Source: a virus
Direction: 5' to 3' (one strand)
Virus record (IMG/VR): IMGVR_UViG_3300046000_004279
Span: 32,001-96,000 of that record
Length of the DNA stretch: 64,000 bases
The notes under the pieces: model-generated
What the model was told of the DNA's origin: nothing
The model's database searches: none
The model's input: only the letters and a program-made list of their open reading frames with translations
Shown here: positions 9,961-20,922 of the stretch, in pieces
How positions within the stretch are numbered: position 1 is the stretch's first letter
How the letters are laid out: every line of letters begins with the position of its first letter
Program-made: the position numbers and the translations under genes

Positions 9961-10142
9961 TGGATAATGTAATGCGTGACGAAGTTGCTCGGTTGTATCC
10001 AGCAAATGTATCAAGTGACTTTGAGAACAATGTTCGCGGTGAGCTCATTGATTGGATTTTGCTTGCACCTACACCAATCAAGTTGACTGGTATGGACATG
10101 AAAGATGTAATTAAAATGTTTTGGAACGAAAGGCTAAACTGA
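9960..10142 (+). CDS. Hypothetical protein
   Basis: Coupled TAATG start. Confidence 0.6.
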   Translation: MDNVMRDEVARLYPANVSSDFENNVRGELIDWILLAPTPIKLTGMDMKDVIKMFWNERLN

Positions 10143-10336
10143 TGGCTGATAGAAATGTAAGTGTTCAAGTAGGTCCTAACTTCTTAGGTCTCTTGACTAT
10201 CGTGTTCATTACCCTTAAACTGACTGGATACATTGCATGGTCGTGGTGGTGGGTTCTTTCGCCGCTGTGGCTGGGTTTTGTTGTAGCCATTACCATATTC
10301 CTCATCATAGCAATTATTGCAGGATTGTTCAAATGA
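10142..10336 (+). CDS. Small membrane protein
   Basis: GLLTIVFITLKLTGYIAWSWWWVLSPLW, a common phage membrane motif. Confidence 0.75.
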   Translation: MADRNVSVQVGPNFLGLLTIVFITLKLTGYIAWSWWWVLSPLWLGFVVAITIFLIIAIIAGLFK

Positions 10337-10710
10337 AAACTCTCGTAGCTATCGCACTACTGTTTGCTACATCTGCTTCCGCAGATACTGTTCGTGCAAC
10401 TATCAAAGACCATTATGAATGGCAAGATGTTAACATACCAATTACGCAGACTTATTGTAAGCAGAAGTCTGGTGGTCAAGGTGCTCTCGAAGGTATGATC
10501 ATTGGTGGTCTACTTGGTAAAGGGATCACTGGTGATGACGAAGGTGCTATTGGTGGTGCAGTTATCGGTGGTATAATCGGTGCTGATAAAGCTGGTCGTA
10601 AGTGTTGGGACGAGACTACATATTACACTGAGACAACTCAAGTGTATGCGTATAGCACGATCACTTTCACTCAAGATGGTCAAACATACACCGTGGACTT
10701 TTATAAATAA
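10333..10710 (+). CDS. Exported glycine-zipper protein
   Basis: Signal peptide MKTLVAIALLFATSASA; GMIIGGLLG...GAVIGGIIG. Confidence 0.75.
   Translation: MKTLVAIALLFATSASADTVRATIKDHYEWQDVNIPITQTYCKQKSGGQGALEGMIIGGLLGKGITGDDEGAIGGAVIGGIIGADKAGRKCWDETTYYTETTQVYAYSTITFTQDGQTYTVDFYK
10702..10709 (+). promoter_or_regulatory. T4-type late promoter
   Basis: TATAAATA immediately before the first tRNA. Confidence 0.65.
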
Positions 10711-10716
10711 GACATT

Positions 10717-10793
10717 GCTTCCGTAGCACAACTGGATAGTGCAAGAGATTTCTACTCTCTAGGTTGTGGGTTCGAGTCCTACCGGAAGCACCA
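10717..10793 (+). tRNA. tRNA-Arg(TCT)
   Basis: Cloverleaf GCTTCCG/CGGAAGC, loop TT-TCT-AC, encoded CCA. Confidence 0.92.
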
Positions 10794-10798
10794 ACATT

Positions 10799-10874
10799 GC
10801 CCATGTAGGCCAAAGGTAGAGTCAGGAGACTTAAAATCTTCACAGTGTCGGTTCGAGTCCGACCATGGGCACCA
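10799..10874 (+). tRNA. tRNA-Leu(TAA), short variable loop
   Basis: GCCCATG/CATGGGC, CT-TAA-AA, CCA. Confidence 0.9.
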
Positions 10875-10892
10875 ATCTTCTAAGGGGTTTAA

Positions 10893-11048
10893 ATGAGTAG
10901 CACAGAGTACGCCGAACTTGCAGGATTGACTATCGCGTTGAGTCGTTTAAGTCTCACCGCTGAAATACATAGAGATAGAGAGTGGGCTTTTGTTACTACT
11001 TGGATGACAGAACGCATCAATAATTTAAACAACAAAAAGAGACCATAA
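10893..11048 (+). CDS. Hypothetical protein (51 aa)
   Basis: AAGGGG RBS; MSSTEYAELAGL... Confidence 0.5.
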   Translation: MSSTEYAELAGLTIALSRLSLTAEIHRDREWAFVTTWMTERINNLNNKKRP

Positions 11049-11221
11049 TGTTTTACGTAAAAGAACACGGATTCTACTATGAAAAAAAGCACGGACCATA
11101 CAGCACGTTGAAGGAAGCTATGGCTAACAAGCCGCCTGACAAGACATTTGGGCGCGAAGAAGCCTGTGTGGTATTTACGATTGAATCTACTGAAGGCACG
11201 GTTCAACTGCTAAACGAATAA
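11048..11221 (+). CDS. Hypothetical protein (57 aa)
   Basis: Coupled TAATG; MFYVKEHGFYYEKKHGPY... Confidence 0.5.
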   Translation: MFYVKEHGFYYEKKHGPYSTLKEAMANKPPDKTFGREEACVVFTIESTEGTVQLLNE

Positions 11222-11222
11222 T

Positions 11223-11313
11223 GGAAGTGGGCGTTAGACGCAAGAGGGACTTATAAACCCTTCAGCAGTAGATGACTGTTCTCGACTGGGAGCGTAACCC
11301 AGCACTTCTACCA
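11223..11313 (+). tRNA. Atypical tRNA with TAT (Ile) anticodon, long variable arm and non-canonical T loop
   Basis: GGAAGTG/CACTTCT-A-CCA, CT-TAT-AA loop, T arm CTGGG-AGCGTAA-CCCAG. Confidence 0.7.
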
Positions 11314-11314
11314 T

Positions 11315-11390
11315 GATCCTATAGCTCAGTGGTTAGAGCTGGGCGCTCATAACGCCTAGGTCCGAGGTTCGAATCCTCGTGGGATCACCA
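11315..11390 (+). tRNA. tRNA-Ile2(CAT), lysidine type; Met less likely
   Basis: GATCCTA/TGGGATC with C4-G69 and C5-G68; CT-CAT-AA; CCA. Confidence 0.8.
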
Positions 11391-11399
11391 TTAAAAATG

Positions 11400-11407
11400 T
11401 ATAAATA
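11400..11407 (+). promoter_or_regulatory. T4-type late promoter
   Basis: TATAAATA. Confidence 0.7.
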
Positions 11408-11427
11408 TATCAAAAATGAGATATCAA

Positions 11428-12483
11428 ATGTTACGTTTTAAAAAAGTCTTTATGGAAAGTGGTTTAAATTCAAAAGCGGGTAACCCTGAGAATTTTGATT
11501 TACACAGTAAAAAATACGACACTGAAGGTGATCGACATACTCAAAAGTATATTGCGCCTTACTTGCCTGGCAAAATTTCTCATGCGCAAGGCACACACAG
11601 AGTAAATGGGGATGTTTCTTCAGATATTCCAAAAGGTTCTAATGTAACAATTCATGGCCATTCAATTGTTAACAACAGGCATCATGTAACTATTTCTGCA
11701 GTTGGAAGTAATAAAAAAGTTACAGTAGCTACAAGCAAACTGAACAAACCCACAGGTTCTACTACCATTGAAAATGAAGGTCATAAGTATGAGAAGTCGA
11801 CATTTGATAGATTTAAAAGTCATGGATTAATTCCTGATGGATATAGTCCAGCTGGATCCACTGCTGGTACGGATGTTCCTATCATAAACAAAAGACAAAA
11901 AACTCACCACCAAGGTCGAATTGTTGCCGATGACAAAGCATTGTTATCAGGCGAAGTTAAAAAAGATACTACAGCAGCATTTGGACAGATAACTGTTAGA
12001 CATGATCCTCAAAAGGGCGGATGGCATATTCCCGATAATAACAGAGGAAAAAGACCCAGCTATGCATCCGAAGTTGAAAAAGCTGGTTTAATAGACCACT
12101 TAAACAAAACCGCCAGTGATCCTACTAAAACGACAAAAACTGCTTCTGGTCGAGTTAAAACTGAAAGAATTACACATCCAGATCTTAAACCCGCAGAATC
12201 ATATTTGACTGATCACCATGTTGACGTGTTACACGTGGGCGGCGGTCATGGTACGTATAGTGTCGGTGAGAAAGATGTTACTGACCACGGTCTACCTAGG
12301 CTATCTGGTAAAGGATTATGGACAATTCGTCAAAAACAAACAGGTGCGAATGCACATAATACTAGAACTATCATGTTCCAGCCACATGGCAAAGCTGGAC
12401 TAAATAATAGTCATATTAATCTTGATGATGATTCGCATATAGAATCTTTCAAGAAAACCTTGGGTCACTCTACTTCGTCATAA
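11428..12483 (+). CDS. Hypothetical late protein; possible capsid-targeted PD-(D/E)xK nuclease
   Basis: MLRFKKVFME start; GHKYEK...GTD...GEVK...FGQ. Confidence 0.55.
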   Translation: MLRFKKVFMESGLNSKAGNPENFDLHSKKYDTEGDRHTQKYIAPYLPGKISHAQGTHRVNGDVSSDIPKGSNVTIHGHSIVNNRHHVTISAVGSNKKVTVATSKLNKPTGSTTIENEGHKYEKSTFDRFKSHGLIPDGYSPAGSTAGTDVPIINKRQKTHHQGRIVADDKALLSGEVKKDTTAAFGQITVRHDPQKGGWHIPDNNRGKRPSYASEVEKAGLIDHLNKTASDPTKTTKTASGRVKTERITHPDLKPAESYLTDHHVDVLHVGGGHGTYSVGEKDVTDHGLPRLSGKGLWTIRQKQTGANAHNTRTIMFQPHGKAGLNNSHINLDDDSHIESFKKTLGHSTSS

Positions 12484-12610
12484 CAATCTATAAAACAGGA
12501 TATTCAAATGGAACCTTTAATAGAAAAGACTTAAGATTGTTCTTGCATCCGCATTTTCATTAAAAACTTCGTTGGATGTTAAAAAGTTTTCATGGAGCGT
12601 AAAAAAACGC

Positions 12611-12640
12611 TTGACTTACAATAACAAAGTACTATATAAT
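12611..12640 (+). promoter_or_regulatory. Sigma70-type promoter of the leader/tRNA operon
   Basis: A-tract, TTGACT-N18-TATAAT. Confidence 0.7.
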
Positions 12641-12670
12641 AGAAGTACGAACAAAGGAACTCTATTGCAA

Positions 12671-12757
12671 ATGACTTCGCTGCATAAACAAAATCAATCC
12701 TGGTTTATGACCCCGCTCTGCGGCGAGTATATTCGCATGTGTGGAGGCTCTATGTAA
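12671..12757 (+). CDS. Putative attenuator leader peptide MTSLHKQNQSWFMTPLCGEYIRMCGGSM
   Basis: AAAGGA RBS, 28 codons; the last codons overlap the antiterminator arm. Confidence 0.65.
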   Translation: MTSLHKQNQSWFMTPLCGEYIRMCGGSM

Positions 12758-12783
12758 CGTATATCAAAGATATACCTTATCAA

Positions 12784-12819
12784 AGAGCCCTCCCAGATGA
12801 AAATCTTGGAGGGTTTTTT
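12784..12819 (+). terminator. Intrinsic terminator (attenuator) just upstream of tRNA-Cys
   Basis: AGAGCCCTCC-C-AGA-TGAAAA-TCT-T-GGAGGG-TTTTTT. Confidence 0.8.
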
Positions 12820-12824
12820 AATAC

Positions 12825-12902
12825 GGTGTGGTGCTCGAGTGGCCCAAGGGAACGGATTGCAAATCCGTAAAGTCGTGAGTTCGAATCTCACCCACACCTC
12901 CA
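12825..12902 (+). tRNA. tRNA-Cys(GCA)
   Basis: GGTGTGG/CCACACC, TT-GCA-AA, U73, CCA. Confidence 0.92.
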
Positions 12903-12904
12903 AT

Positions 12905-12978
12905 GTTGGTGTAGCTCAATGGTAGAGCTGCGGTGGTCAGCACCGTGCGTGAGAGTTCGATTCTCTCCACCTTCGCCA
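12905..12978 (+). tRNA. tRNA-Trp duplicate with altered anticodon loop (GG-TCA-GC)
   Basis: Identical to 13057-13130 except position 26 and 5 loop bases. Confidence 0.6.
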
Positions 12979-12982
12979 ATTC

Positions 12983-13054
12983 GGTGTGGCAGCTTGGTGC
13001 TGACTTGGGTCTCATAAGCCCGAAGAGAAAGTTCGATTCTTTCCCACACCACCA
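12983..13054 (+). tRNA. tRNA-Met(CAT), atypical D arm
   Basis: GGTGTGG/CCACACC-A-CCA, CT-CAT-AA, GAAAG-TTCGATT-CTTTC. Confidence 0.75.
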
Positions 13055-13056
13055 AT

Positions 13057-13130
13057 GTTGGTGTAGCTCAATGGTAGAGCGGCGGTCTCCAAAACCGTGC
13101 GTGAGAGTTCGATTCTCTCCACCTTCGCCA
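13057..13130 (+). tRNA. tRNA-Trp(CCA)
   Basis: GCGGT-CT-CCA-AA-ACCGT, G73, CCA; two U.U pairs in the acceptor stem. Confidence 0.88.
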
Positions 13131-13139
13131 AAATAACTG

Positions 13140-13168
13140 TTGACATTTGTGTAGAAAAGGTCTATATT
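13140..13168 (+). promoter_or_regulatory. Sigma70-type promoter
   Basis: AAATAACTG-TTGACA-N17-TATATT. Confidence 0.8.
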
Positions 13169-13206
13169 AAGTTAACAGGGGGAAATTAATTCGAATCAAT
13201 CTCTCT

Positions 13207-13218
13207 TGCTCTTTCAAA
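13207..13218 (+). promoter_or_regulatory. boxA-like antitermination site
   Basis: TGCTCTTTCAAA ~40 nt after the promoter (rrn boxA is TGCTCTTTAACA). Confidence 0.6.
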
Positions 13219-13266
13219 CTAACTAGAAAATGTCCTAGCGTAAGCGATGATGGACTGGAAACAGAT

Positions 13267-13384
13267 AACTCTGTTTTCATTGGGGTGGTGCTTGGTGCTC
13301 GCTTAGTCTCTTGCAGGAGACGGTGGCTAGCTGCAACTAGTGAGCAAGGTTCGATTCCTTGGCCACCTCATTGAAAACAGAGTT
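13267..13384 (+). ncRNA. Unassigned tRNA-like RNA enclosed in a 13-bp stalk
   Basis: AACTCTGTTTTCA/TGAAAACAGAGTT enclosing TGGGGTGGT/GCCACCTCA and T arm CAAGG-TTCGATT-CCTTG. Confidence 0.65.
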
Positions 13385-13386
13385 TT

Positions 13387-13461
13387 TGGGGGATAGCATA
13401 GTGGTTTTGCAGCAGACTTTGAATCTGTTGATCGTAGGTTCGAATCCTACTCCCCCAACCA
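13387..13461 (+). tRNA. tRNA-Gln(TTG)
   Basis: TGGGGGA/TCCCCCA, CT-TTG-AA, CCA. Confidence 0.9.
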
Positions 13462-13465
13462 ATAT

Positions 13466-13540
13466 GTCTTGGTAGCTCATTGGTAGAGCGAAGGTCTGAA
13501 AAACCTTGCGTAGGGAGTTCGATTCTCCCCCTTGGCACCA
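13466..13540 (+). tRNA. tRNA-Phe(GAA)
   Basis: AAGGT-CT-GAA-AA-ACCTT, CCA; two U.U pairs in the acceptor stem. Confidence 0.88.
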
Positions 13541-13560
13541 TATAACATAAGGAATATACA

Positions 13561-13794
13561 ATGAAGATTGGTGATAAAGTTATCCATACTAAGCAATGGA
13601 ATCAATATAAGGGTTGGGTTGGGACTATTGTGTCGCTTAGTCCATTAATTGAAGGATTTGTTTTTGTTAAGTGGGATACACGTATTGATCCTGATGGTAA
13701 TGTCTTTAAAGATTCTTTAGAATCGGATGGTATGCTTCAACACGTTCTTGAGTTAACACTATACCAACCTGTGTCAGATCCAGCTGCACATTAA
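13561..13794 (+). CDS. Hypothetical protein (SH3/KOW-like)
   Basis: TAAGGA RBS; MKIGDKV...GTIV...VKWD. Confidence 0.65.
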   Translation: MKIGDKVIHTKQWNQYKGWVGTIVSLSPLIEGFVFVKWDTRIDPDGNVFKDSLESDGMLQHVLELTLYQPVSDPAAH

Positions 13795-13815
13795 AAGAAT
13801 TTCTGGCTGAATTTT

Positions 13816-13890
13816 GGTCCTATAGCTCAGTGGTAGAGCAAAGAGCTGATAACTCTTAGGTCAGGTGTTCAATTCACCTTAGGACTACCA
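13816..13890 (+). tRNA. tRNA-Ile(GAT)
   Basis: GGTCCTA/TAGGACT, CT-GAT-AA, CCA. Confidence 0.92.
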
Positions 13891-13927
13891 AAGTCAAACC
13901 TAGTTGATCTCGAAAGTCGCTAGGTCT

Positions 13928-13995
13928 GCTCCTACAAGTGGTTATGCGGTTGTTCGAGCAACTGCATGTGGGATCGTTCCCCACTAGGAGTAACA
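13928..13995 (+). ncRNA. D-armless tRNA-like RNA
   Basis: GCTCCTA/TAGGAGT acceptor, CAAGTGGTT linker, 10-bp stem, T arm GTGGG-ATCGTTC-CCCAC; ends in ACA. Confidence 0.55.
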
Positions 13996-14000
13996 AGTTT

Positions 14001-14085
14001 GGGAGTGACGCATCAAGGTGATGCAGCAGACTGTAAATCTGTGGCGGAAGCGCAACGTTGGGTTCGATTCCCTTCACTCCCACCA
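14001..14085 (+). tRNA. tRNA-Tyr(GTA)
   Basis: GGGAGTG/CACTCCC, CT-GTA-AA, long V arm, CCA. Confidence 0.9.
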
Positions 14086-14092
14086 ACACCAT

Positions 14093-14167
14093 GCAGCATT
14101 TGATTTCTGGTGAGATCGCTATCCTTTCAAGATAGAGAGACGGGATCGTAACCCGTATGCTGTACCA
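14093..14167 (+). tRNA. tRNA-Glu(TTC), ATCGTAA T loop
   Basis: GCAGCAT/ATGCTGT, CT-TTC-AA, CCA. Confidence 0.82.
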
Positions 14168-14170
14168 ATT

Positions 14171-14247
14171 GCCTCCATAGCTCAGCTGGATAGAGTACTG
14201 GTCTTCGAAACCATGGGTCGGGAGTTCGAATCTCTCTGGGGGCTCCA
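14171..14247 (+). tRNA. tRNA-Arg(TCG)
   Basis: GCCTCCA/TGGGGGC, CT-TCG-AA, A20, CCA. Confidence 0.9.
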
Positions 14248-14254
14248 TAACAAT

Positions 14255-14329
14255 GCTGGATAAGGTGTAACGGTTGCACTCCTGATTGTGAGTCAGGCAG
14301 ATGTGGTTCGACTCCACTATCCAGTACCA
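14255..14329 (+). tRNA. tRNA-His(GTG), 8/4 fold, no G-1, A73
   Basis: GCTGGATA/TATCCAGT 8-bp acceptor, GTGG/CCAC 4-bp T stem, TT-GTG-AG. Confidence 0.85.
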
Positions 14330-14334
14330 AGAAT

Positions 14335-14409
14335 GCGGGTGTAACTCAGGGGTAGAGTACTTCGTTGCCAACGAAGCTGTCGTGGGTTCAAATCCCACCA
14401 CCCGCTCCA
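14335..14409 (+). tRNA. tRNA-Gly(GCC)
   Basis: GCGGGTG/CACCCGC, TT-GCC-AA, U73, CCA. Confidence 0.92.
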
Positions 14410-14418
14410 ATATATTAT

Positions 14419-14426
14419 TATAAATA
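14419..14426 (+). promoter_or_regulatory. T4-type late promoter
   Basis: TATAAATA. Confidence 0.7.
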
Positions 14427-14451
14427 TCTTAACATTAGTTAGGAGAATAGT

Positions 14452-14889
14452 ATGAAGAAGTTGTTATTGGTAGCGTTACTGCTACTGCCATCCATTGCTT
14501 TCGCTGAGAAGAAACCAGAAGGCGTAGTACACGATCTAAAGATCATTCGCGTGATTGATGGTGACACTGTAGAGTTTGAAGCACCATTCCTTATTGATCC
14601 ATTGCCTAAGAAGCTATCAATTCGTGTATGGGGTGTTGACACTCCTGAAAAGTCTTTCCGCGCTAAGTGCGAGAAAGAAGCAGCAATGGGTGCAGAAGCT
14701 TCCAAGTTCACAAAGGATCTTCTTGCCAATGCCAAGACCACACAGATCTCAATCTACGAATGGGATAAGTATGGTGGAAGAGTTCTTGGAGATGTTATCA
14801 TTGACGGTAACAGCTTAACGAAGATGTTGCTAGACAAAGGTTATGCTCGTGAATACTATGGTGATGCAAAACAATCTTGGTGTGAGTGA
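14452..14889 (+). CDS. Thermonuclease (SNase family) with signal peptide
   Basis: RVIDGDT, IRVWGVDTPE, DKYGGRVLG; N-terminal signal peptide. Confidence 0.9.
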   Translation: MKKLLLVALLLLPSIAFAEKKPEGVVHDLKIIRVIDGDTVEFEAPFLIDPLPKKLSIRVWGVDTPEKSFRAKCEKEAAMGAEASKFTKDLLANAKTTQISIYEWDKYGGRVLGDVIIDGNSLTKMLLDKGYAREYYGDAKQSWCE

Positions 14890-14895
14890 AAACAG

Positions 14896-15204
14896 ATGCT
14901 TTTAGATATTACACCGAACGCCAAAGAATATCTCACTAAGATGACTGAAGATAACGGTAAGCGATATGTTTACCTTAATGTCAAGGGCGGTGGGTGCAGT
15001 GGGTTCAAATATGAATGGAACTTTACTGATGAAACCGACAAAGGTGCGTTGGTACAAGACATTCTTGTCTTGGATGCTATGGCTGAAATGTTTGTATTTG
15101 GTTGTACTGTGGATTACATTCGCGAGTTAGGCGGTAACTATCTCACAGTATTGAATCCTAACGCAAAAGCAAAATGTGGCTGCGGCGAAAGCTTTGGCAT
15201 ATGA
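14896..15204 (+). CDS. iscA: A-type Fe-S cluster carrier (IscA/HesB)
   Basis: GGGCSGFKY, NPNAKAKCGCGESF. Confidence 0.92.
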   Translation: MLLDITPNAKEYLTKMTEDNGKRYVYLNVKGGGCSGFKYEWNFTDETDKGALVQDILVLDAMAEMFVFGCTVDYIRELGGNYLTVLNPNAKAKCGCGESFGI

Positions 15205-15220
15205 TTAGTGAAAATAACTG

Positions 15221-15249
15221 TTGACATTTGGTTCAGAATAATGTATAAG
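15221..15249 (+). promoter_or_regulatory. Sigma70-type promoter
   Basis: AAATAACTG-TTGACA-N17-TATAAG. Confidence 0.75.
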
Positions 15250-15270
15250 TATACATGTAAGACGAATCAA

Positions 15271-15282
15271 TGCTCTTTGAAA
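15271..15282 (+). promoter_or_regulatory. boxA-like antitermination site
   Basis: TGCTCTTTGAAA ~20 nt after the promoter. Confidence 0.65.
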
Positions 15283-15298
15283 ATTTAGAAACAGAAGT

Positions 15299-15393
15299 GA
15301 TTCTGTTTTCACATGCATCCTGTGAATGAGGGTAGGCCACCCAACACTTTGCGGACTACGCAGAAATGCTGGGGTGCATGTGAAAACAGAGTT
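15299..15393 (+). ncRNA. Unassigned RNA: ~23-bp stalk topped by a three-way junction
   Basis: TTCTGTTTTCACATGCATCC/GGGTGCATGTGAAAACAGAG; inner GGGT/ACCC and TTTGCG/CGCAGA hairpins. Confidence 0.65.
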
Positions 15394-15394
15394 T

Positions 15395-15471
15395 TGCGGG
15401 GTAGACTGGAGGTGGTTCCAGCACGGTCTCATAAGCCGAATACGTAGGTTCGATTCCTGCCCCCGCCACCA
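15395..15471 (+). tRNA. tRNA-Met(CAT), initiator-like
   Basis: TGCGGGG/CCCCGCC with 1:72 mismatch, CT-CAT-AA, CCA. Confidence 0.8.
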
Positions 15472-15477
15472 AAATAC

Positions 15478-15567
15478 GGAGAGCTGGGCGAGTGGTTTAT
15501 GCCTGCAGTCTTGAAAACTGCCGAACGGTGAAACGTTCCGTGAGTTCGAATCTCACGCTCTCCGCCA
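15478..15567 (+). tRNA. tRNA-Ser(TGA)
   Basis: GGAGAGC/GCTCTCC, CT-TGA-AA, long V arm, G73. Confidence 0.92.
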
Positions 15568-15570
15568 GAA

Positions 15571-15762
15571 TTCGATGGACGGCGTAGTTACACGGTCTTA
15601 GACGCCTCTCGTAGAAGCGCAACATCTAAGACGAGGTCGGGAGAGATGCTTCCCATATAGTCATACCCGCCCGTTTGGCGGTCCACTATATGGGGTATAA
15701 AGCTGATCATAACCTTGGGAACCCGTGCGCTGAAAAGGGGATGCATACCCGTTTCCATCGAA
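15571..15762 (+). ncRNA. Unassigned multibranched RNA (~190 nt)
   Basis: TTCGATGGA/TCCATCGAA closing stem; GTCTTAGA/TCTAAGAC; CCCATATAGT/ACTATATGGG. Confidence 0.55.
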
Positions 15763-15763
15763 C

Positions 15764-15875
15764 TTTATACGGAGTCAGTAGTGTGTCGGCTCGTTTTGAG
15801 GTTACAGATCTTATACCGTTGAAGGATAAGCACACCACTACTTCTGCGAAAGGCTTAGATCCCCTTTCGTATGAA
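15764..15875 (+). ncRNA. Unassigned structured RNA (~110 nt)
   Basis: TTATACGGAG/TTTCGTATGA closing stem; AGTAGTG/CACTACT; CTTAT/ATAAG. Confidence 0.45.
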
Positions 15876-15878
15876 TTC

Positions 15879-15951
15879 GGGGCGGGTAATGGGTTACGGG
15901 TGATCCTTGCAAGATTGCTGTCGTTGGGTTCGATTCCCAATTGCTCCACCA
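15879..15951 (+). tRNA. tRNA-Ala(TGC), reduced D arm
   Basis: G3.U70, CT-TGC-AA, TTGGG-TTCGATT-CCCAA, A73, CCA. Confidence 0.8.
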
Positions 15952-15955
15952 AATT

Positions 15956-16029
15956 GGCCCATTGATGAAGTGGTATCATACCGGATTGTCTATCCGAGGT
16001 TGCGAGTTCGATTCTCGCATGGGTCGCCA
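15956..16029 (+). tRNA. tRNA-Asp(GTC)
   Basis: GGCCCAT/ATGGGTC, TT-GTC-TA, G73, CCA. Confidence 0.88.
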
Positions 16030-16220
16030 AACTTGGGGCTAGCCGCCCAAGACCAGTGTCAGAGAATTTCTTGTTACAACGCTGACACTTTAATAAACTC
16101 TGGTATACAAGCGTGCCTGTCGACGATAATAGATGGGGGTTTTAGTTATATTCCACCCTTAAGAAATATGACGGGTAGTGATGCAACCTAGAAGGGGTGG
16201 CTCCCAGCATCGTAAATTAC

Positions 16221-16294
16221 GGTCTGTTAGTTCAATGGTAGAACATCGTCTTTACACGGCGACTACGCGGGTTCGATTCCCCCACAGACTACCA
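16221..16294 (+). tRNA. tRNA-Val(TAC)
   Basis: GGTCTGT/ACAGACT, TT-TAC-AC, CCA. Confidence 0.9.
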
Positions 16295-16300
16295 GATAAT

Positions 16301-16376
16301 GCCTTGGTGGTGAAATGGTAAACACACCGGTCTTAGAAACCGCAAGCTGAGAGTTCGAGTCTCTCCTGAGGCACCA
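16301..16376 (+). tRNA. tRNA-Leu(TAG), short variable loop
   Basis: GCCTTGG/CTGAGGC, CT-TAG-AA, CCA. Confidence 0.88.
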
Positions 16377-16395
16377 ATAAATTTAGGAATAGATA

Positions 16396-17529
16396 ATGAA
16401 GTCCAATGTGATACAAGATGAAATCACTGCTGAAATCAGCAAGATTTTTGACTATAAGTTTGACGGGACAACTGAGTTTGTTCCACCGTCAATTGGAATG
16501 ATTGATAAAGAGACAACACTGAAAGACTTCAACATTGGCTTGATAGTCGGACCATCGGGATCTGGCAAGAGTACGATGTTAAAGGATTTCGGTGTTGAAG
16601 TCGATCCTCAATGGGATCCTGATCTCTGCGTTGCATCTCATTTTGAAAATGTGAAACAAGCACAAGAACGTTTAGGTGCAGTTGGGTTCAATAGTATTCC
16701 AAGTTGGCTTCGCCCTTATCATGTTTTGTCTAACGGTGAACAGTTTCGCGCTCGTTTGGCTCGTCAACTAGATAACAATGTAGTGGTGGATGAGTTCACT
16801 TCTGTCATTGATCGTGATGTTGCTAAGAGTTGTTCAAATGCAATTCATCGTTACATCCATGCAAATGGTTTGAAGAACATCGTCTTTTCATCCTGTCATT
16901 ATGACATTATTGAGTGGTTACGTCCAGATTGGGTATTTGATACTCAAACTGGTAAATTGACCACAAGGAGGTTTGAAAGGCCAGCCATCGTTTTGGAAAT
17001 CCTACCTTGTTCCACCAAAGCTTGGTCATTGTTCAGCGACCATCACTATCTTGACGGGGACATCAATAAAAGTTCACGATCTTGGATCGTCACGTGGAAC
17101 AACCGACCTGTCGGCTTTCTTTCAAGTTTAGCGATGCCTAGTGGTAGTCTTAAGAACGCTTGGAGAGGTCACAGAACTGTCGTTCTACCTGAGTTTCAAG
17201 GTTTGGGTATTGGTGCTAGAATGACCGAAGCTTTAGGTGAGATGCACATCAGAGAAGGCAAAAGGTTCTTCACAAAGACCGCACATCCGCGCTTAGGTGA
17301 GTATCGTAATGCGTCTGACCTTTGGAGATCGACAAGTAAAAACGGGATCTTGAGAAACGACTACAAACACATATCAACTGATGGTTTACCAAACCCTCGT
17401 GGCGCTGGTTACAGTCGTAAGTTTACAAAAGAATATCTGGCTAAACACGCTGACAGAGTGTGTTACAGTCACGAATACATAGGAAATACAACGGATCGTG
17501 GGCTGGATGGTAAAGCAGCAGTTTGCTAA
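16396..17529 (+). CDS. ABC-type ATPase fused to a GNAT acetyltransferase
   Basis: GPSGSGKST, LSNGEQFR, VVVDEF; HHYL and RTVVLPEFQGLGIG acetyl-CoA motif. Confidence 0.88.
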   Translation: MKSNVIQDEITAEISKIFDYKFDGTTEFVPPSIGMIDKETTLKDFNIGLIVGPSGSGKSTMLKDFGVEVDPQWDPDLCVASHFENVKQAQERLGAVGFNSIPSWLRPYHVLSNGEQFRARLARQLDNNVVVDEFTSVIDRDVAKSCSNAIHRYIHANGLKNIVFSSCHYDIIEWLRPDWVFDTQTGKLTTRRFERPAIVLEILPCSTKAWSLFSDHHYLDGDINKSSRSWIVTWNNRPVGFLSSLAMPSGSLKNAWRGHRTVVLPEFQGLGIGARMTEALGEMHIREGKRFFTKTAHPRLGEYRNASDLWRSTSKNGILRNDYKHISTDGLPNPRGAGYSRKFTKEYLAKHADRVCYSHEYIGNTTDRGLDGKAAVC

Positions 17530-17580
17530 ACTGTACTACCTGTAAGGGTAGAGTGGGTTCGATTCCCACACGATCCGCCA
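17493..17580 (+). tRNA. tRNA-Ser(GCT)
   Basis: GGATCGT/ACGATCC, TT-GCT-AA, long V arm, G73, CCA; overlaps the upstream CDS. Confidence 0.9.
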
Positions 17581-17588
17581 TATAAATA
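17581..17588 (+). promoter_or_regulatory. T4-type late promoter
   Basis: TATAAATA, followed by a possible 50-aa ORF at 17594-17746. Confidence 0.55.
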
Positions 17589-17707
17589 ATCTCATGTTCA
17601 AAAAGATTTGGTCCATTCTCTTGCCATTGACTGTCATAGTTAACTTTGGTTTAGCTATCAGTAACTTAATATCCACTAGATCAAACCATTTTATGTTGAT
17701 CGACCTA

Positions 17708-17736
17708 TTGACTTTACATCAATCAAGCACTATATT
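17708..17736 (+). promoter_or_regulatory. Sigma70-type early promoter
   Basis: TTGACT-N17-TATATT. Confidence 0.7.
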
Positions 17737-17756
17737 AAGTAAGTAGAGACAGAGAG

Positions 17757-18287
17757 ATGACCATGACAAACTTCAATTCTTTTGTGACAAACTTTTCGGA
17801 GAGTGCATCGATTGAAAAATCTATGCAAGAAAAGATCTCCAAGGCATTTGCCGAATTGAATGCTAAGTTGATCAAATCTGATCAAGAGTGGGCCAAGAAA
17901 AAGATCGAAGGGTTCCAAGACCACATGAAAAAATGGGATGCAGATCACACCAAATACGCCGATTACAAACTTCGTGGTCCTGAAGTTATCAAATATTGGG
18001 GCAGTGAAGCGATGATGAAACTGATTGCGAGTCGTGGTCTTCAAGGCGGTCTTGATAACATGATGAAAAACACTCATGCTCTTATCGCAAAAAGAGACAA
18101 TCAGATTGTCGCGGCTCTACGTAAGAATAAGATCGACGGCATTCCCGATTTTGAACTGAAACACAATAGTGATGGTTACGAAGGCAGTTTCAAAGTTGGT
18201 GATCACAATGTTAACATCCGCACAATCGTTGCTGGTGGGTACAACATTCAAAGAATGCACATGCGAACGTTAATAAAAGTACAGTAA
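17757..18287 (+). CDS. Hypothetical early protein
   Basis: 176-aa ORF; C-terminal TIVAGGYNIQRMH.R motif. Confidence 0.7.
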   Translation: MTMTNFNSFVTNFSESASIEKSMQEKISKAFAELNAKLIKSDQEWAKKKIEGFQDHMKKWDADHTKYADYKLRGPEVIKYWGSEAMMKLIASRGLQGGLDNMMKNTHALIAKRDNQIVAALRKNKIDGIPDFELKHNSDGYEGSFKVGDHNVNIRTIVAGGYNIQRMHMRTLIKVQ

Positions 18288-18301
18288 AGCTAAAATAACT
18301 C

Positions 18302-18330
18302 TTGACTCTTGCTTAGAGATGCACTATATT
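18302..18330 (+). promoter_or_regulatory. Sigma70-type early promoter
   Basis: AAAATAACTC-TTGACT-N17-TATATT; near copy of the 9722 promoter. Confidence 0.75.
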
Positions 18331-18355
18331 GATACTGTAGTAAAGAGGAAAACAC

Positions 18356-18766
18356 ATGTACACGTTCGACGAATCAATTGTTTCTGATCTGCACAAAGAC
18401 ACTTACGGCTTCCGCCCTGACAGTGCTTTCTGGTCTAACTGGAATGTCTCCTCAGATGCTGGCAAACAGTACATCTGGGATTGTCTGCTCGAAGCTTTCG
18501 CCCACACCATTGAGATTAATGCTAACGAGGATATCGCTGCGATCAATGCTTTCGAGCTTGAGATTGCAAACACGATTGATCTTGGTGCTACTTCGCGTGA
18601 AGTCGCTATTCGTTGGATCATTGAGTCGATGGGTCTGACTGAGACCGATTTGGTGTACGGTGGCAGTTATGTCTGTTTCTTGAAGAAACTACCGTATTCA
18701 ATGGCTCCGTTGTTTGATAACGCGATTCGTGATCTTGAAAGTAACTTCATCAAAGAGGATGCATAA
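18356..18766 (+). CDS. Hypothetical early protein
   Basis: SDLHKDTYGFRP motif; GAGGA RBS. Confidence 0.72.
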   Translation: MYTFDESIVSDLHKDTYGFRPDSAFWSNWNVSSDAGKQYIWDCLLEAFAHTIEINANEDIAAINAFELEIANTIDLGATSREVAIRWIIESMGLTETDLVYGGSYVCFLKKLPYSMAPLFDNAIRDLESNFIKEDA

Positions 18767-18984
18767 TGTTGGAAACTATCTCTGCGGGTGAACTGTGTAT
18801 GGGCATTCTTGAATCAGAATTCCATCGCCCGTTGATCAATGGTAAAGCGAATCGTGAGAACATTGAAGATGCAATCACGATTGGCATGATGGAAAAGAAA
18901 CTTGGGTATGTGTCGCAAGAGACTGTTGACATTGCAATTGCTTTGGTCAACGATTTGCTAGCCCTACATAATGTAAAAGAATAA
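18766..18984 (+). CDS. Hypothetical protein
   Basis: Coupled TAATG. Confidence 0.6.
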   Translation: MLETISAGELCMGILESEFHRPLINGKANRENIEDAITIGMMEKKLGYVSQETVDIAIALVNDLLALHNVKE

Positions 18985-18988
18985 CCGT

Positions 18989-19064
18989 TTCCAGTTAGCT
19001 CAGTTGGTAGAGCATCTGACTGTTAATCAGAGGGTCGCTGGTTCGAGCCCAGCACTGGGAGCCA
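18989..19064 (+). tRNA. tRNA-Asn(GTT)
   Basis: TTCCAGT/ACTGGGA, CT-GTT-AA, G73, CCA. Confidence 0.93.
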
Positions 19065-19071
19065 AATATAT

Positions 19072-19146
19072 CAGGGTGTAGCTCAGTGGTAGAGTGCTTC
19101 ACTTGGAATGAAGAAGTCGCAAGTTCAATCCTTGTCACCCTGACCA
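19072..19146 (+). tRNA. tRNA-Pro(TGG)
   Basis: CAGGGTG/CACCCTG, CT-TGG-AA, CCA. Confidence 0.92.
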
Positions 19147-19168
19147 AATATACGTCAACACTATTGGT

Positions 19169-20293: not shown

Positions 20294-20314
20294 ACTATAC
20301 TATATAATCATATT

Positions 20315-20389
20315 GCGGGAGTAGCTCAGTGGTAGAGCGCTATCCTTCCAAGTTAGATGTCGTGGGTTCGACCCCCATCTCCCGCTCCA
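20315..20389 (+). tRNA. tRNA-Gly(TCC)
   Basis: GCGGGAG/CTCCCGC, CT-TCC-AA, U73, CCA. Confidence 0.92.
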
Positions 20390-20394
20390 ATTTC

Positions 20395-20470
20395 GCTTCC
20401 TAAGCATTGCTGGCGATGCAACGGTTTTGTAGTCCGAAGATAGAGTGTTCGATTCACTCAGGAAGCACCA
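20395..20470 (+). tRNA. tRNA-Thr(TGT)
   Basis: GCTTCCT/AGGAAGC, TT-TGT-AG, CCA. Confidence 0.82.
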
Positions 20471-20491
20471 TTTTACATTATAGGAGTTACA

Positions 20492-20854
20492 ATGGCATAC
20501 TGGGGTTATCACGCGATCTTCGATTGCGCTGCTTGTGATATTGGTCTTATCACTAGCGAGAAAAATGTTTACAATTTCATTAAAGAACTTGTCCCTGCGA
20601 TTGATATGGTAGCCTACGGTGAGCCAATGATCAAACACTTTGCTACTCACGCTATCGACAAAGCTGGTATCAGCTTCTGTCAGATGATTGAGACTAGCAG
20701 CATTACTGGGCACCTTGTTGATGCAAACGGTGATGCATATATTGACATCTTCTCTTGTAAGCCAGTTGATATTGGCATTGCTCAAGATGTTATCACTAAG
20801 TATTTCAAGCCATCTAAAGTTCGAGTTAATTTCCTCACTCGCAGTGCTGGATAA
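20492..20854 (+). CDS. speD: S-adenosylmethionine decarboxylase proenzyme
   Basis: WGYH..FD, IETSSITGH cleavage region, YIDIFSCK. Confidence 0.85.
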   Translation: MAYWGYHAIFDCAACDIGLITSEKNVYNFIKELVPAIDMVAYGEPMIKHFATHAIDKAGISFCQMIETSSITGHLVDANGDAYIDIFSCKPVDIGIAQDVITKYFKPSKVRVNFLTRSAG

Positions 20855-20875
20855 TCATACAATTTAGTATTAACG

Positions 20876-20898
20876 CCCCGTAGCTTATGGCTACGGGG
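20876..20898 (+). terminator. Strong hairpin after speD
   Basis: CCCCGTAGC-TTATG-GCTACGGGG; short T tail; followed by late-like TATAAGTA (20910-20917). Confidence 0.5.
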
Positions 20899-20922
20899 TT
20901 GAACTCGTTTATAAGTAGCAGT

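Follow-up and report, generated by a model that had tools for sequence, protein, structure and literature searches.

A boxA-linked RNA stalk with two alternative pairings heads phage tRNA runs and may act as an rrn-type leader

The DNA analyzed here, a stretch of 64,000 nucleotides (the window) from an uncultured T4-like phage, carries two copies of what appears to be a previously undescribed RNA element: the module belongs to no Rfam family, and a literature search found no description of it. The order of parts is identical in both copies: a promoter, a boxA-like sequence, a short hairpin (GGAAACAGA/UCUGUUUUC), a stalk with its cargo, 4-5 nt and a tRNA. The 20-24 bp stalk (UCUGUUUUCA.../...UGAAAACAGA) flanks a 92-nt tRNA-like RNA in cassette 1 and a 69-nt three-way junction in cassette 2. 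We hypothesize, with a probability of about 55%, that the module is an rrn-type leader, in which boxA would recruit Nus factors, the stalk would be processed, probably by RNase III, and an upstream arm would hold the 5' arm of the stalk.

Cassette 1 (13131-13386) and the tRNA that follows it contain:
13131..13168, + strand: promoter, with an upstream block AAATAACTG common to both cassettes
13140-13145 and 13163-13168, + strand: -35 TTGACA and -10 TATATT, spacer 17 nt
13207..13219, + strand: boxA-like TGCTCTTTCAAAC, with the shared block CGAATCAAT just 5' of it
13232..13255, + strand: two-helix leader hairpin (GUCC, UA, GC-GUAA-GC, GAUGAU, GGAC)
13257..13265, + strand: competitor arm GGAAACAGA, with its partner UCUGUUUUC across the loop UAAC (13266-13269)
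13270-13279, + strand: stalk 5' arm TCTGTTTTCA
13270..13281, + strand: stalk, 5' strand, the invariant UCUGUUUUCA and then UU at the internal-loop position
13282..13370, + strand: cargo 1, a tRNA-like RNA (ARAGORN 'tRNA-???', 2-nt anticodon)
13370..13386, + strand: stalk, 3' strand, with AU, UGAAAACAGA (13372-13381) and the spacer GUUUU
13372-13381, + strand: 3' arm TGAAAACAGA, then GUUUU, then tRNA-Gln
13387-13461, + strand: tRNA-Gln

Cassette 2 (15212-15394) and its tRNA contain:
15212..15249, + strand: promoter, with the same upstream block as cassette 1
15221-15226 and 15244-15249, + strand: -35 TTGACA and -10 TATAAG, spacer 17 nt
15271..15283, + strand: boxA-like TGCTCTTTGAAAA, then UUUA
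15288..15295, + strand: competitor arm GAAACAGA, loop AGUGAU (15296-15301)
15302-15311, + strand: stalk 5' arm TCTGTTTTCA
15302..15323, + strand: stalk, 5' strand, all paired, with the usual CA/GY internal loop closed
15312-15380, + strand: cargo, 69 nt
15324..15368, + strand: core of cargo 2, a three-way junction with the closing stalk (GGGU-AGGCC-ACCC and UUGCG-GACUA-CGCAG hairpins)
15369..15394, + strand: stalk, 3' strand, with UGAAAACAGA (15381-15390) at its end and the spacer GUUU after it
15381-15390, + strand: 3' arm TGAAAACAGA
15395-15471, + strand: initiator-like tRNA-Met

Every element that the initial annotation had named in its two parallel promoter-boxA-stalk cassettes before tRNAs was present, including the different cargos, one tRNA-like and the other a three-way junction. 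Its stalk length of 13 to ~23 bp had to be corrected to 20-24 bp in both cassettes, and the shorter hairpin has 8-9 bp. The cassette 1 promoter matches the sigma70 consensus at 11 of 12 positions. BoxA starts 39 nt past the -10 hexamer in cassette 1 and 22 nt past it in cassette 2, where the 5' arm starts 18 nt past the 12-nt boxA. The boxA of cassette 1 agrees at 10 of 11 positions with the gamma-proteobacterial consensus GYTCTTTAANA (PMC5725501). Between boxA and the switch, the leader hairpin of cassette 1 combines an asymmetric internal loop with a GNRA tetraloop; cassette 2 lacks this hairpin.

Within the window, the shared parts are rare. The 18-mer AATAACTGTTGACATTTG occurs exactly twice and a third match requires 3 mismatches, against a chance expectation of 0.25 matches at up to 3 mismatches; the promoter 18-mer of cassette 1 is identical to 15213-15230, and the exact boxA core GCTCTTTSAAA is found only in these two leaders across the 64 kb. 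The best true inverted repeats within 10000-21000 are the two stalks, one of 22 nt with 91% complementarity, the other of 19 nt with 95%. In minimum-energy folds the stalk is continuous over ~21 bp in cassette 1 (z-score -2.7) and over ~24 bp in cassette 2 (z-score -5.1).

The strongest evidence against chance, which we consider decisive, is conservation in other phages. A search of IMG/VR with the stalk only returned 13 contigs, and about 40 distinct cassettes were gathered in all; most of the stalk-search contigs with upstream sequence show the promoter, boxA and competitor arm seen here, followed by a tRNA. These phages are distant: in three complete genomes the gp6 baseplate protein is 32-35% identical to that of the window phage, and for two jumbo genomes the gp6 comparison gave a 90-aa match only. 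The window phage and the very distant phages have a 10-bp lower helix in common. Over about 40 cassettes, stalk positions 1-10 do not vary in sequence and are 90-100% paired, positions 11-12 hold a conserved mismatch that makes a 2x2 internal loop (CA/GY or AC/GY in 32 of 40), and pairing is 93-100% at positions 13-19, where each position has up to six pair types; both window cassettes are without the typical 2x2 loop. The upper helix of 7-9 bp comes in 25 distinct strands and is 98.9% paired, compared with 61.5 +/- 2.5% (maximum 70%) when partners were shuffled (1000 shuffles). The 29 G-U pairs of the stalk argue that it pairs as RNA of this strand. The stalk motif, whose conservation the initial annotation had named as one test of its reading, recurs in about 40 cassettes, and recurrence of the module in dozens of very distant phages argues for a real RNA element.

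At least three further families, found through boxA alone, keep this layout but use unrelated sequences for the arms (upstream, 5' and 3' arm: GUAAGUAGAG, CUCUACUUACA and UGUAAGUAGAG; GAAGAACAAC, GUUGUUUCUUC and GUAGAGACAA; AAAACAGUG, CACUGUUUUUA and UAAACAGUG). In all families the three arms vary jointly, and families A and B share the internal-loop flanks CACAUGC/GCAGUUG. The 5' arm starts 18-26 nt past the 12-nt boxA or, in long leaders, 47-58 nt past it, with a closed hairpin inserted between. This two-helix hairpin is confined to long leaders and occurs in 18 distinct true versions, a count that leaves out one spurious regex match (L074); its outer stem reaches 4/5 pairing or better in 18 of 18, with 11 distinct outer strands and 14 distinct inner hairpins capped by GNRA, UUCG or similar loops. 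Two features add to what had first been annotated, namely the 2x2 internal loop of the conserved unit and this extra tetraloop hairpin of cassette 1.

UCUGUUUU has two mutually exclusive pairings, with the upstream competitor or with the downstream 3' arm. This claim of the initial annotation held up, as whole-arm covariation keeps the alternative pairing in at least four sequence families. In predicted folds, the 5' arm pairs with the competitor when the RNA ends before the 3' arm, and with the 3' arm in the full-length RNA, in 9 of 9 representatives each. For cassette 1, 8 bases of the 5' arm are paired with the competitor in the nascent-RNA fold, and none in the full fold.

Around the cargo, the scaffold stays and the content changes. 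In cargo 1, the upper helix of the stalk doubles as an acceptor-like 7-bp stem (13282-13288 with 13363-13369). The cargo also has a hairpin whose 6-nt loop is UUGCAG, a variable-arm hairpin (loop CUGCAA) and the T-arm GGTTCGATTCC, while a D stem and CCA are absent, and an Rfam tRNA search gave zero matches. Its homologue at L050:12669 keeps 5 pairs through two-sided changes. Cargo 2 matched no Rfam family and shares the block AUGAGGGUNGGCCACCCAA with L003 and L006; its covariation is weak because there is just one other distinct homologue. Overall, about 35 different cargos occur in the scaffold, which encloses 54-144 nt of RNA; in L029, L032 and L047 it is empty, the stalk being closed by an AAAA loop with a tRNA next. 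L009 and L074 have leaders 96% identical and downstream tRNAs 99% identical around unrelated cargos: the cargo has been swapped between near-identical flanks. These cargos, the empty form, the exchange and the comparative data strongly support the core of what was first proposed, a reusable rrn-like leader scaffold for different small RNAs, from which RNase III may release discrete RNAs. The Rfam search suggested at that time returned no family for either window cassette.

The closest known arrangement is the rrn leader, which is read by the rrn antitermination complex and whose 16S leader-trailer helix RNase III cuts. In Enterobacteriaceae, the 5' strand of that helix carries boxC (UCUGUGUGGG) at a fixed spacing, reported as 18-19 nt past boxA (PMC10250234); with boxA taken as 12 nt, as in this analysis, the spacing at the E. 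coli locus is 12 nt. It has been proposed that boxA-NusB holds boxC near the RNA exit channel until the trailer emerges (PMC10250234). E. coli leader and trailer sequences co-fold as expected. Like the module, the rrn leader has a strong promoter and then an early boxA in a transcript that is not translated. A conserved element a fixed short distance past boxA supplies one strand, the 5' one, of a long helix around the enclosed RNA, and tRNA genes come after the trailer strand. The module's 5' arm opens with the same five bases as boxC (UCUGU), and part of the E. coli leader strand (CAGACAAUCUG) is also able to pair locally. In contrast to rrn, the module encloses a hypervariable small RNA of 54-144 nt, or nothing, rather than 16S rRNA; its helix has 19-24 bp, against 25-40 bp in rrn; a dedicated competitor arm lies upstream and covaries with both strands; it lacks a boxB upstream; and its boxA has G or C at position 8, where the gamma-proteobacterial consensus has A. 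It is also phage-encoded, and the extended boxA 17-mer GCTCTTTGAMAATTTAG was not found in 401 sampled Pseudomonadota genomes, so the leader was not copied from any sampled host rrn leader.

Other likenesses concern single parts. T7 R1.1-type RNase III signals, in the early transcript, span about two helical turns and consist of two ~10-bp helical segments separated by an internal loop. The module resembles them in its two ~10-bp segments and internal loop, and differs from phage RNase III signals in that its upper helix opens into structured RNA, not a loop. The T4 cluster also begins with tRNA-Gln, as after cassette 1, with a hairpin 10 nt upstream; boxA, competitor arm and cargo are all absent there. 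T4 species 1 and 2 (rnaC and rnaD) are small stable non-tRNA RNAs, co-transcribed and co-processed with tRNAs, as the cargos may be; in contrast, their genes are distal in the cluster, with no conserved stalk or boxA around them, and we found no sequence similarity to the cargos.

One alternative is that the stalk chiefly serves as a handle for a protein, much as Ro/Rsr binds the terminal stem of Y RNAs, with the cargo as effector or decoy in a family of small RNPs and processing secondary. The lower helix and internal-loop flanks are indeed conserved in sequence, beyond pairing, across very distant phages, and the modular layout, in which the stem stays constant while the body varies, suits this reading. 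In addition, a T-arm-like hairpin is carried by 19 of 40 cargos. The YrlA/Y RNAs (RF02553) combine a long terminal stem with a tRNA-like T-arm, closed acceptor and D-arm, YrlA-like RNAs have been reported in phages too (PMC4201824), and the cargos L054:9685 and L055:162 have exactly the YrlA connectivity (stem, T-arm, closed acceptor, D-arm, stem), with L055:158-276 aligning across the whole Rfam YrlA model. However, that alignment scores 25.8 bits against a cutoff of 69, the stalk is without the YrlA stem motif (GNCGAAN0-1G, or GNCGAAG; PMC4201824), and neither the window's genome nor any of five complete genomes with cassettes contains a TROVE/Rsr gene; on these grounds we rejected YrlA membership. 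The window's own cassettes give no YrlA match, and their two cargos differ from YrlA in connectivity. The module stem belongs to an operon leader, always heading the operon after boxA; a cargo-free cassette exists, and the unrelated lower-helix sequences of families B, C and D fit a pairing constraint better than a single protein site. We thus regard the handle as unlikely to be the main function.

It is more doubtful still that the stalk and its U-run form a terminator, with the competitor hairpin as anti-terminator, gating readthrough into the tRNA run. The two structures are mutually exclusive and conserved, a G plus 4-5 U follows the stalk in both window cassettes, and families B and C have a U-rich spacer (UUUAUU, UUAUU) past the 3' arm. 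The U-run is short, however, is missing before non-tRNA elements (GCUUCAAAG, AUCAAGG, AUUGG) and is more in keeping with the context of a tRNA 5'-leader or of RNase E/P, and the adjacent upstream boxA, an antitermination signal, would override termination; for these reasons the readthrough switch entertained in the initial annotation is disfavored. A stem with an A/U-rich base around 54-144 nt of structured RNA would also be a poor terminator, and the full stalk, far stabler than the competitor hairpin, would always win, with no sensing element apparent. A terminator scan did not report the sites, although its loop limit of 3-8 nt excludes large-cargo stems. That the leader hairpins are instead a cis-acting antiterminator RNA (HK022 put), or a nut-type site for an N-like protein, seems to us improbable. 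The order of boxA and then, a few nt later, a hairpin, just past an early promoter, is that of lambda nut sites, the stem sequence is strongly conserved, and long leaders have an additional conserved hairpin that contains an internal loop. N proteins, in contrast, read the boxB loop, and the loops here vary (UAAC, AGUGAU, AGAAAU, UUUAC and others); the hairpin covaries with a 3' arm 54-144 nt downstream that put and nut elements do not need, no candidate N-like gene was identified, and the module heads tRNA genes, not protein-coding genes. Least probable of all, the inverted repeats could act as DNA, as portable homology or recombination sites for exchanging small-RNA cassettes, with RNA pairing incidental. 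The L009 and L074 swap would fit, the same arms in phages of ~33% protein identity suggest horizontal spread, and T4-like phage tRNA regions are known recombination hot spots (SegB, PMC2330249). Cargo exchange may, however, just follow from conserved flanks; the G-U pairs of the stalk would be A-C mismatches on the opposite strand, orientation is fixed relative to promoter, boxA and tRNAs, the upper helix covaries with each cargo, and the competitor arm has no role as DNA.

In the rrn-type leader that we favor, transcription would start from the strong sigma70-type promoter, and boxA (GCUCUUU[G/C]A[A/C]A), ~20-40 nt into the transcript, would recruit host NusB/NusE and other Nus factors, allowing RNA polymerase to withstand Rho-dependent and intrinsic termination over a long, mostly untranslated operon. 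At the place of rrn boxC, UCUGUUUUCA would first be held by the competitor GGAAACAGA in a short hairpin while the cargo folds independently. The emerging 3' arm UGAAAACAGA would then oust the competitor to form a leader-trailer-like helix of ~20 bp around the cargo, made of the invariant 10-bp lower part, the central 2x2 loop in most members and the 7-9 bp upper part. This helix would be a substrate for endonucleolytic processing, host RNase III being the likeliest enzyme; RNase P might act at the internal loop of a tRNA-like cargo. RNase III has been reported in T4 tRNA maturation and to affect T4 tRNA synthesis, as cited in PMC4810235 (refs 47 and 48). No RNase III gene was found in five phage genomes, so the enzyme would have to be the host's. 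If the internal loop is the cut site, the loop-less window cassettes may be processed differently. The lower helix, invariant among phages of ~33% protein identity, exceeds what a plain RNase III stem would need, and sequence-specific protein binding could be involved as well. Nus binding, the nuclease and the roles of the cargos are what we infer from this anatomy. In our model, processing would free the cargo as a small RNA of its own, closed by a terminal helix, and would also clear the 5' side of the first tRNA, after which the cleaved leader could return to the competitor hairpin.

The initial annotation had described two parallel cassettes heading tRNA runs, and both are present as described: each consists, in order, of a sigma70-type promoter, boxA, a competitor arm, a loop, a 5' arm, a cargo, a 3' arm, a short spacer and a tRNA gene. 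We call the helix of the 5' and 3' arms around the cargo the stalk; the competitor arm is the upstream strand able to pair with the 5' arm. Both cassettes lie inside a 10-kb region that carries 25 tRNA genes with small ORFs interspersed, and no true inverted repeat in this tRNA region is stronger than the two stalks.

Features of the two cassettes, all on the strand shown.
13131-13386: cassette 1, promoter TTGACA-17-TATATT
13232-13255: long-leader hairpin, cassette 1 copy
13282-13370: cargo 1
13387: tRNA-Gln, first tRNA after cassette 1, 4-5 nt downstream
15212-15394: cassette 2, promoter TTGACA-17-TATAAG
15395: initiator-like tRNA-Met, first tRNA after cassette 2, 4-5 nt downstream

An identical 20-nt block running into the promoter is common to both cassettes. 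Downstream of the promoter, both carry a CGAATCAAT block and then a boxA-like GCTCTTT[C/G]AAA, which occurs without mismatch only at these two sites in the 64-kb window; after boxA follow GGAAACAGA, a loop of 4-6 nt, TCTGTTTTCA, the cargo and TGAAAACAGA. The exact promoter-plus-boxA pattern had no match in IMG/VR, and that version of the promoter is therefore private to the window. The two boxAs, GCUCUUUCAAA and GCUCUUUGAAA, agree at 10 of 11 positions with GYUCUUUAANA, a gamma-proteobacterial consensus (GYTCTTTAANA in DNA, PMC5725501) that may not be that of the host. At position 8 the consensus A is replaced by C or G in the window pair; of the 35 family copies, nearly all have G, C or U there. 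Because GTTCTTTGAAAA is found at several contig ends of a Bacillus genome, in a placement typical of rrn edges, G at this position may be a natural boxA variant. BoxA starts 22 nt after the -10 hexamer in cassette 2 and 39 nt after it in cassette 1 (mostly 22-42 nt across the family, with two outliers at 9 and 11 nt), and tRNA and small-RNA genes lie downstream. It is thus placed early in the leader of an untranslated or poorly translated operon.

A search of IMG/VR with the stalk arms alone returned 13 contigs. Most of those with upstream sequence carry a TTGACA promoter, the extended boxA GCTCTTTGA(A/C)AATTTAG and GGAAACAGA, and in most of them a tRNA lies downstream of the stalk. Further cassettes were gathered by searching IMG/VR with the short hairpin, giving ~40 distinct, correctly oriented cassettes in which the stalk motif is conserved. 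The Rfam comparison suggested with the initial annotation returned no family for either cassette at gathering or E-value threshold; a mir-202 match on cassette 2 (22.5 bits) reflects the long hairpin only. No relative was found in INPHARED by megablast or blastn. In bacterial genomes, the hairpin pattern gave at least 120 matches, about the chance level, and no boxA lay beside any of those listed; two listed matches that also had a 3'-arm-like match sit in unrelated sequence. A full-text literature search for the arm sequences returned unrelated primers only, and nothing relevant on boxA in phage tRNA operons was found in the literature searched. The feature is real and conserved, with no earlier description found in Rfam or the literature searched, and the cassettes represent an RNA family not in Rfam, with a clear predicted two-state fold.

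The IMG/VR record holding the window measures 110.9 kb and is ~53% complete; the window corresponds to its bases 32001-96000 and includes T4-type baseplate genes. By gp6, the nearest cultured relative is Phage C48C1 (Kyanoviridae; 42% identity), in which no relative of the cassette was found; T4-like phages of Pelagibacter, Methylophilales and cyanobacteria come next, with 32-35% identity. Three complete carriers of the cassette also share 32-35% gp6 identity with the window phage, and two jumbo carriers (342 and 519 kb) match over 90 residues only. Comparing window proteins with the cassette loci by tblastn was uninformative for divergence, the loci being short. Each complete carrier genome has one to three cassettes, and two sites are syntenic: one between tRNA-Cys and tRNA-Gln, the other upstream of initiator-like tRNA-Met and tRNA-Ser(UGA).

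The tRNA region holds several other features. Two near-identical tRNA genes at 12905-12978 and 13057-13130 are called by ARAGORN as tRNA-SeC(UCA) and tRNA-Trp(CCA), respectively, and the first could be an opal-suppressor-like duplicate of tRNA-Trp. At 15879-15952 there is a tRNA-like gene, reported by neither ARAGORN nor Rfam, that encodes its CCA end and has a T-arm TTGGGTTCGATTCCCAA; its 7-nt loop, CUUGCAA, would give the anticodon UGC (Ala). It occupies the relatives' tRNA-Ala(UGC) site, between tRNA-Ser(UGA) and tRNA-Asp, and is probably a divergent tRNA-Ala. Four unannotated gaps of 85-310 nt between tRNA genes (13891-14000, 14086-14170, 15568-15878 and 16030-16220) contain no ORF and no Rfam family, the sole match near them being a weak permuted-tmRNA hit (15924-16041, 21.8 bits); they may encode further stable small RNAs, as with T4 rnaC and rnaD. 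Directly upstream of cassette 2, 14452-15204 encodes two proteins, a staphylococcal-nuclease homologue whose N-terminus resembles a signal peptide and an Fe-S assembly protein of the HesB/IscA type; the same nuclease occurs in L006 and L249, two IMG/VR loci with a cassette-2-type cassette. A 377-aa ORF (16396-17529) joins an N-terminal P-loop (ABC_tran-like) to a GNAT acetyltransferase domain (phrog_11143), a pair that we take to recall TmcA, which acetylates a cytidine of tRNA-Met; tRNA-Met(CAU) genes number three in this phage. Amid the tRNA genes, a 374-aa ORF (19169-20293) matches the Druantia DruA family (PF14236, E 2.4e-12) and is, judged by this match, a defence-system domain carried by the phage.

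The predicted folds contain ~21 continuous base pairs in cassette 1 and ~24 bp in cassette 2 (z-scores -2.7 and -5.1), and the leader-trailer-type helix measures 19-24 bp across the family. Counted from the outside, stalk positions 1-10 are UCUGUUUUCA/UGAAAACAGA, essentially invariant and 90-100% paired. Positions 11-12 form a conserved 2x2 mismatch (5' CA or AC against 3' GY) in 32 of 40 cassettes; the window copies are atypical here, cassette 2 being fully paired and cassette 1 having U-U plus U-A. Positions 13-19 are 93-100% paired with up to six pair types per position, and pairing falls off past position 20. This upper helix, with 25 distinct strands, is 98.9% paired, against 61.5 +/- 2.5% when 3' strands are reassigned among cassettes (maximum 70% in 1000 shuffles). 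The flanks are complementary and covarying and are predicted to form a long helix, and whole arms covary across four or more families. On this model the stalk spans about two helical turns, interrupted at its centre by an internal loop. Since the core around this loop, CACAUGC/GCAGUUG, is common to family A (the window's arm sequence) and family B (a different one), the loop is likely a recognition or cleavage site.

Families beyond A were found by searching IMG/VR with the extended boxA alone, and some boxA loci have the same three-arm layout in other sequences.

Arm sequences beyond the window type: competitor arm, loop, 5' arm ... 3' arm.
Family B: GUAAGUAGAG, loop, CUCUACUUACA ... UGUAAGUAGAG
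Family C: GAAGAACAAC, loop, GUUGUUUCUUC ... GUAGAGACAA
Locus L207: AAAACAGUG, loop, CACUGUUUUUA ... UAAACAGUG
Loci L245 and L229: compensated variants of family A

For nine representatives, the predicted fold of RNA cut before the 3' arm pairs 8-10 bases of the 5' arm with the competitor, whereas the fold of the full RNA leaves the competitor with no 5'-arm base and pairs 8-12 of them with the 3' arm. The three arms change together across families, which is the strongest evidence in our analysis and, at the level of sequence comparison, shows that both alternative structures matter and that the alternative pairing is under selection.

The distance between boxA and the stalk falls into two classes. 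The 5' arm begins 18-26 nt past the 12-nt boxA in short leaders (e.g. cassette 2) and 47-58 nt past it in long leaders (e.g. cassette 1). What lengthens the long leaders is a covarying hairpin, itself closed, that is capped by GNRA or UUCG and contains an asymmetric internal loop (UA / GAURAU); we collected 18 distinct true versions of it. The closed form of this hairpin should keep the 5' arm spatially near boxA in the long leaders. We rejected a K-turn for this hairpin, since half of the copies have GAUAAU and lack the G needed at the first sheared pair. The extended-boxA search also placed boxA at the head of many phage tRNA operons. At eight loci (L203, L230, L237, L242, L252, L256, L258 and L261) no stalk separates GCTCTTTGA(A/C)AATTTAG from the tRNA directly after it, so uncultured phages appear to have boxA-led tRNA operons commonly, also outside the stalk families.

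Cargo length varies from 54 to 144 nt, and ~35 unrelated types occur. One cassette, present at loci L029, L032 and L047, is empty, its stalk closed by an AAAA loop, and five loci (L041, L055, L061, L069 and L220) carry two or three stalk-cargo units in tandem, where the 3' arm of one unit is the competitor of the next. T-arm-like hairpins occur in 19 of 40 cargos; in 10 cargos the hairpin adjoins a 7-8 bp upper helix, like the acceptor/T-arm minihelix of tRNA, and two cargos (L041(-):2825-2988 and L075:1501-1649) are arrays of three consecutive T-arm-like hairpins (GGTTCGAnTCC). ARAGORN called cargo 1, which is tRNA-like, an undefined tRNA with a 2-nt anticodon. We do not consider it a true tRNA: it gave no RF00005 match at E up to 5, its loop has 6 nt, and it lacks a D stem and an encoded CCA. 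In its homologue at locus L050, five pairs are preserved by changes on both sides and the loops UUGCAG and CUGCAA are conserved; cargo 1 is therefore a selected structure. Cargo 2 is predicted to fold as a 69-nt three-way junction and has one other distinct homologue only. A hammerhead seen in it by eye (GAUGAGGGU...ACCCAAAC) was rejected, with A at the essential G12 position and no Rfam match. Likewise, L061(-):5449-5523, called tRNA-Cys by ARAGORN, is degenerate and has no Rfam tRNA match; it is tRNA-like only, not a real tRNA in a stalk.

At the tRNA-Met site, four contigs whose downstream sequences are 93-99% identical carry four unrelated cargos, and two of them have 96% identical leaders. 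As unrelated cargos lie between near-identical flanks, the cargo is exchanged as a unit. One speculative extension, which we hold to be rather unlikely, is that the module is a portable socket through which hypervariable small RNAs are expressed and processed, with exchange between phages by recombination in its constant arms, and that its cargos are decoys or sponges of host factors that recognise tRNA shape. Many cargos may then mimic the tRNA acceptor/T-arm or be arrays of up to three T-arms, and candidate targets may include tRNA-cleaving defence nucleases, tRNA-modifying or repair enzymes, and RNase P. The complete cargo turnover between 96-99% identical flanks and the frequency of T-arms are consistent with this, and cargo classes common to several contigs keep their helices by compensatory changes. 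If true, the module would be a small-RNA counterpart of anti-defence gene islands.

The closest known plan is that of the rrn leader. In Enterobacteriaceae, the 5' strand of the 16S leader-trailer helix contains boxC (UCUGUGUGGG), which Warner et al. report at a distance of 18-19 nt from the upstream boxA in 98% of operons; they tested a model in which boxA-NusB keeps boxC close to the RNA exit channel until transcription has produced the trailer, and the mechanism by which boxC and this helix act in ribosome biogenesis is an open question (PMC10250234). Our reading of the E. coli leader gives boxA, UUUAUCAGACAA and then UCUGUGUGGGCAC, with boxC 12 nt past boxA by the 12-nt boxA definition. 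The complement of the leader strand lies in the trailer, followed by tRNA-Ile, and co-folding the two strands gives a long helix. In the phage module the parts come in the same order with similar short, fixed spacing, and its conserved 5' arm, likewise placed on the 5' strand shortly after boxA, opens with the same five bases as boxC. It differs in enclosing a small RNA and adding a dedicated competitor arm. By this comparison the module would work like an rrn leader but is not one, because its short cargos have no Rfam match to rRNA. It is an analogue rather than a copy of a sampled host leader, since the extended boxA 17-mer is absent from 401 Pseudomonadota genomes, many of which are incomplete and may be without rrn operons. 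Ahead of tRNA-Gln, the first tRNA of T4, there is just a simple hairpin at a distance of 10 nt, and boxA is missing.

The initial annotation had proposed a reusable scaffold like an rrn leader or RNase III stalk. Its architecture is borne out by the conserved parts, covarying arms and exchanged cargo; the release of small RNAs by cutting stands as a proposal. We favour an rrn-type leader with Nus antitermination and a processed stalk, with a probability of roughly 0.55. In our model, boxA would bind NusB-NusE and confer termination resistance, the leader-trailer helix would then form co-transcriptionally under guard, and cutting would follow. The competitor arm could prevent mispairing of the 5' arm while the cargo folds; after cleavage, it could separate the 10-bp lower helix and cap the boxA-bearing leader. 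Phage RNase III sites, such as those of T7, have a central internal loop. RNase III is the leading candidate for cutting the stalk, because the helix size fits, there is a central internal loop and the enzyme is reported to act in T4 tRNA maturation (PMC4810235). No RNase III gene was found in five phage genomes, so cutting by RNase III would depend on the host. For the tRNA-like cargos, RNase P may act instead, since their internal loop lies exactly at the -1/-2 and 73/74 positions of an acceptor-like helix. On the modelled structure, the family has a probable well-marked cleavage site.

Other explanations are less probable. The stalk might be a protein-binding, Y-RNA-like handle, and the cargos of loci L054 and L055 are indeed circularly permuted tRNA-like modules with YrlA connectivity. 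Membership of YrlA (RF02553) was rejected: the best related cassette (L055:158-276) reaches 25.8 bits against a gathering score of 69, neither window cassette matches, and the weak YrlA matches in the window overlie ordinary tRNAs. TROVE (PF05731) is absent from the window's own genome and five complete cassette-bearing phage genomes, with control genomes positive, and we consider such a handle unlikely. The principal fact that the rrn-type leader leaves partly unaccounted for is the invariant sequence of the lower helix. The three-way pairing constraint and horizontal spread may be enough to explain it; alternatively, it may reflect a specific binding protein.

Two mutually exclusive pairings might also suggest a terminator/anti-terminator switch, which we judge improbable. 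An intrinsic terminator or attenuator was rejected, with only 4-5 U against a U-tract of ~7-8 nt, an A/U-rich stem base and a U-run missing in many relatives; a terminator scan reported neither site, its 3-8 nt loop limit excluding stems around a large cargo anyway. A put- or nut-type antiterminator RNA is more improbable still: the hairpin loop sequences vary between copies while the stem is conserved, which led us to reject a lambda nut site, where an N protein reads a conserved boxB loop. Most doubtful is a DNA-level exchange site. The cargo is exchanged between arms, as such a site would have it; the 29 G-U pairs in stalk positions 1-19 argue for pairing as RNA on this strand.

The cassettes bring to light ~35 small structured RNAs that are unexplained, with tRNA mimics among them in number, at a fast-changing locus. 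If the rrn-type leader reading is correct, the module would offer a compact natural system (~150 nt against 1.7 kb) in which to study how a boxA-tethered polymerase brings distant RNA strands together. Large aquatic T4-like and jumbo phages would then be using the host's logic of rRNA transcription and maturation, Nus-factor antitermination plus a leader-trailer helix, for their own tRNA operons, and this would account for how long untranslated phage tRNA arrays escape Rho.
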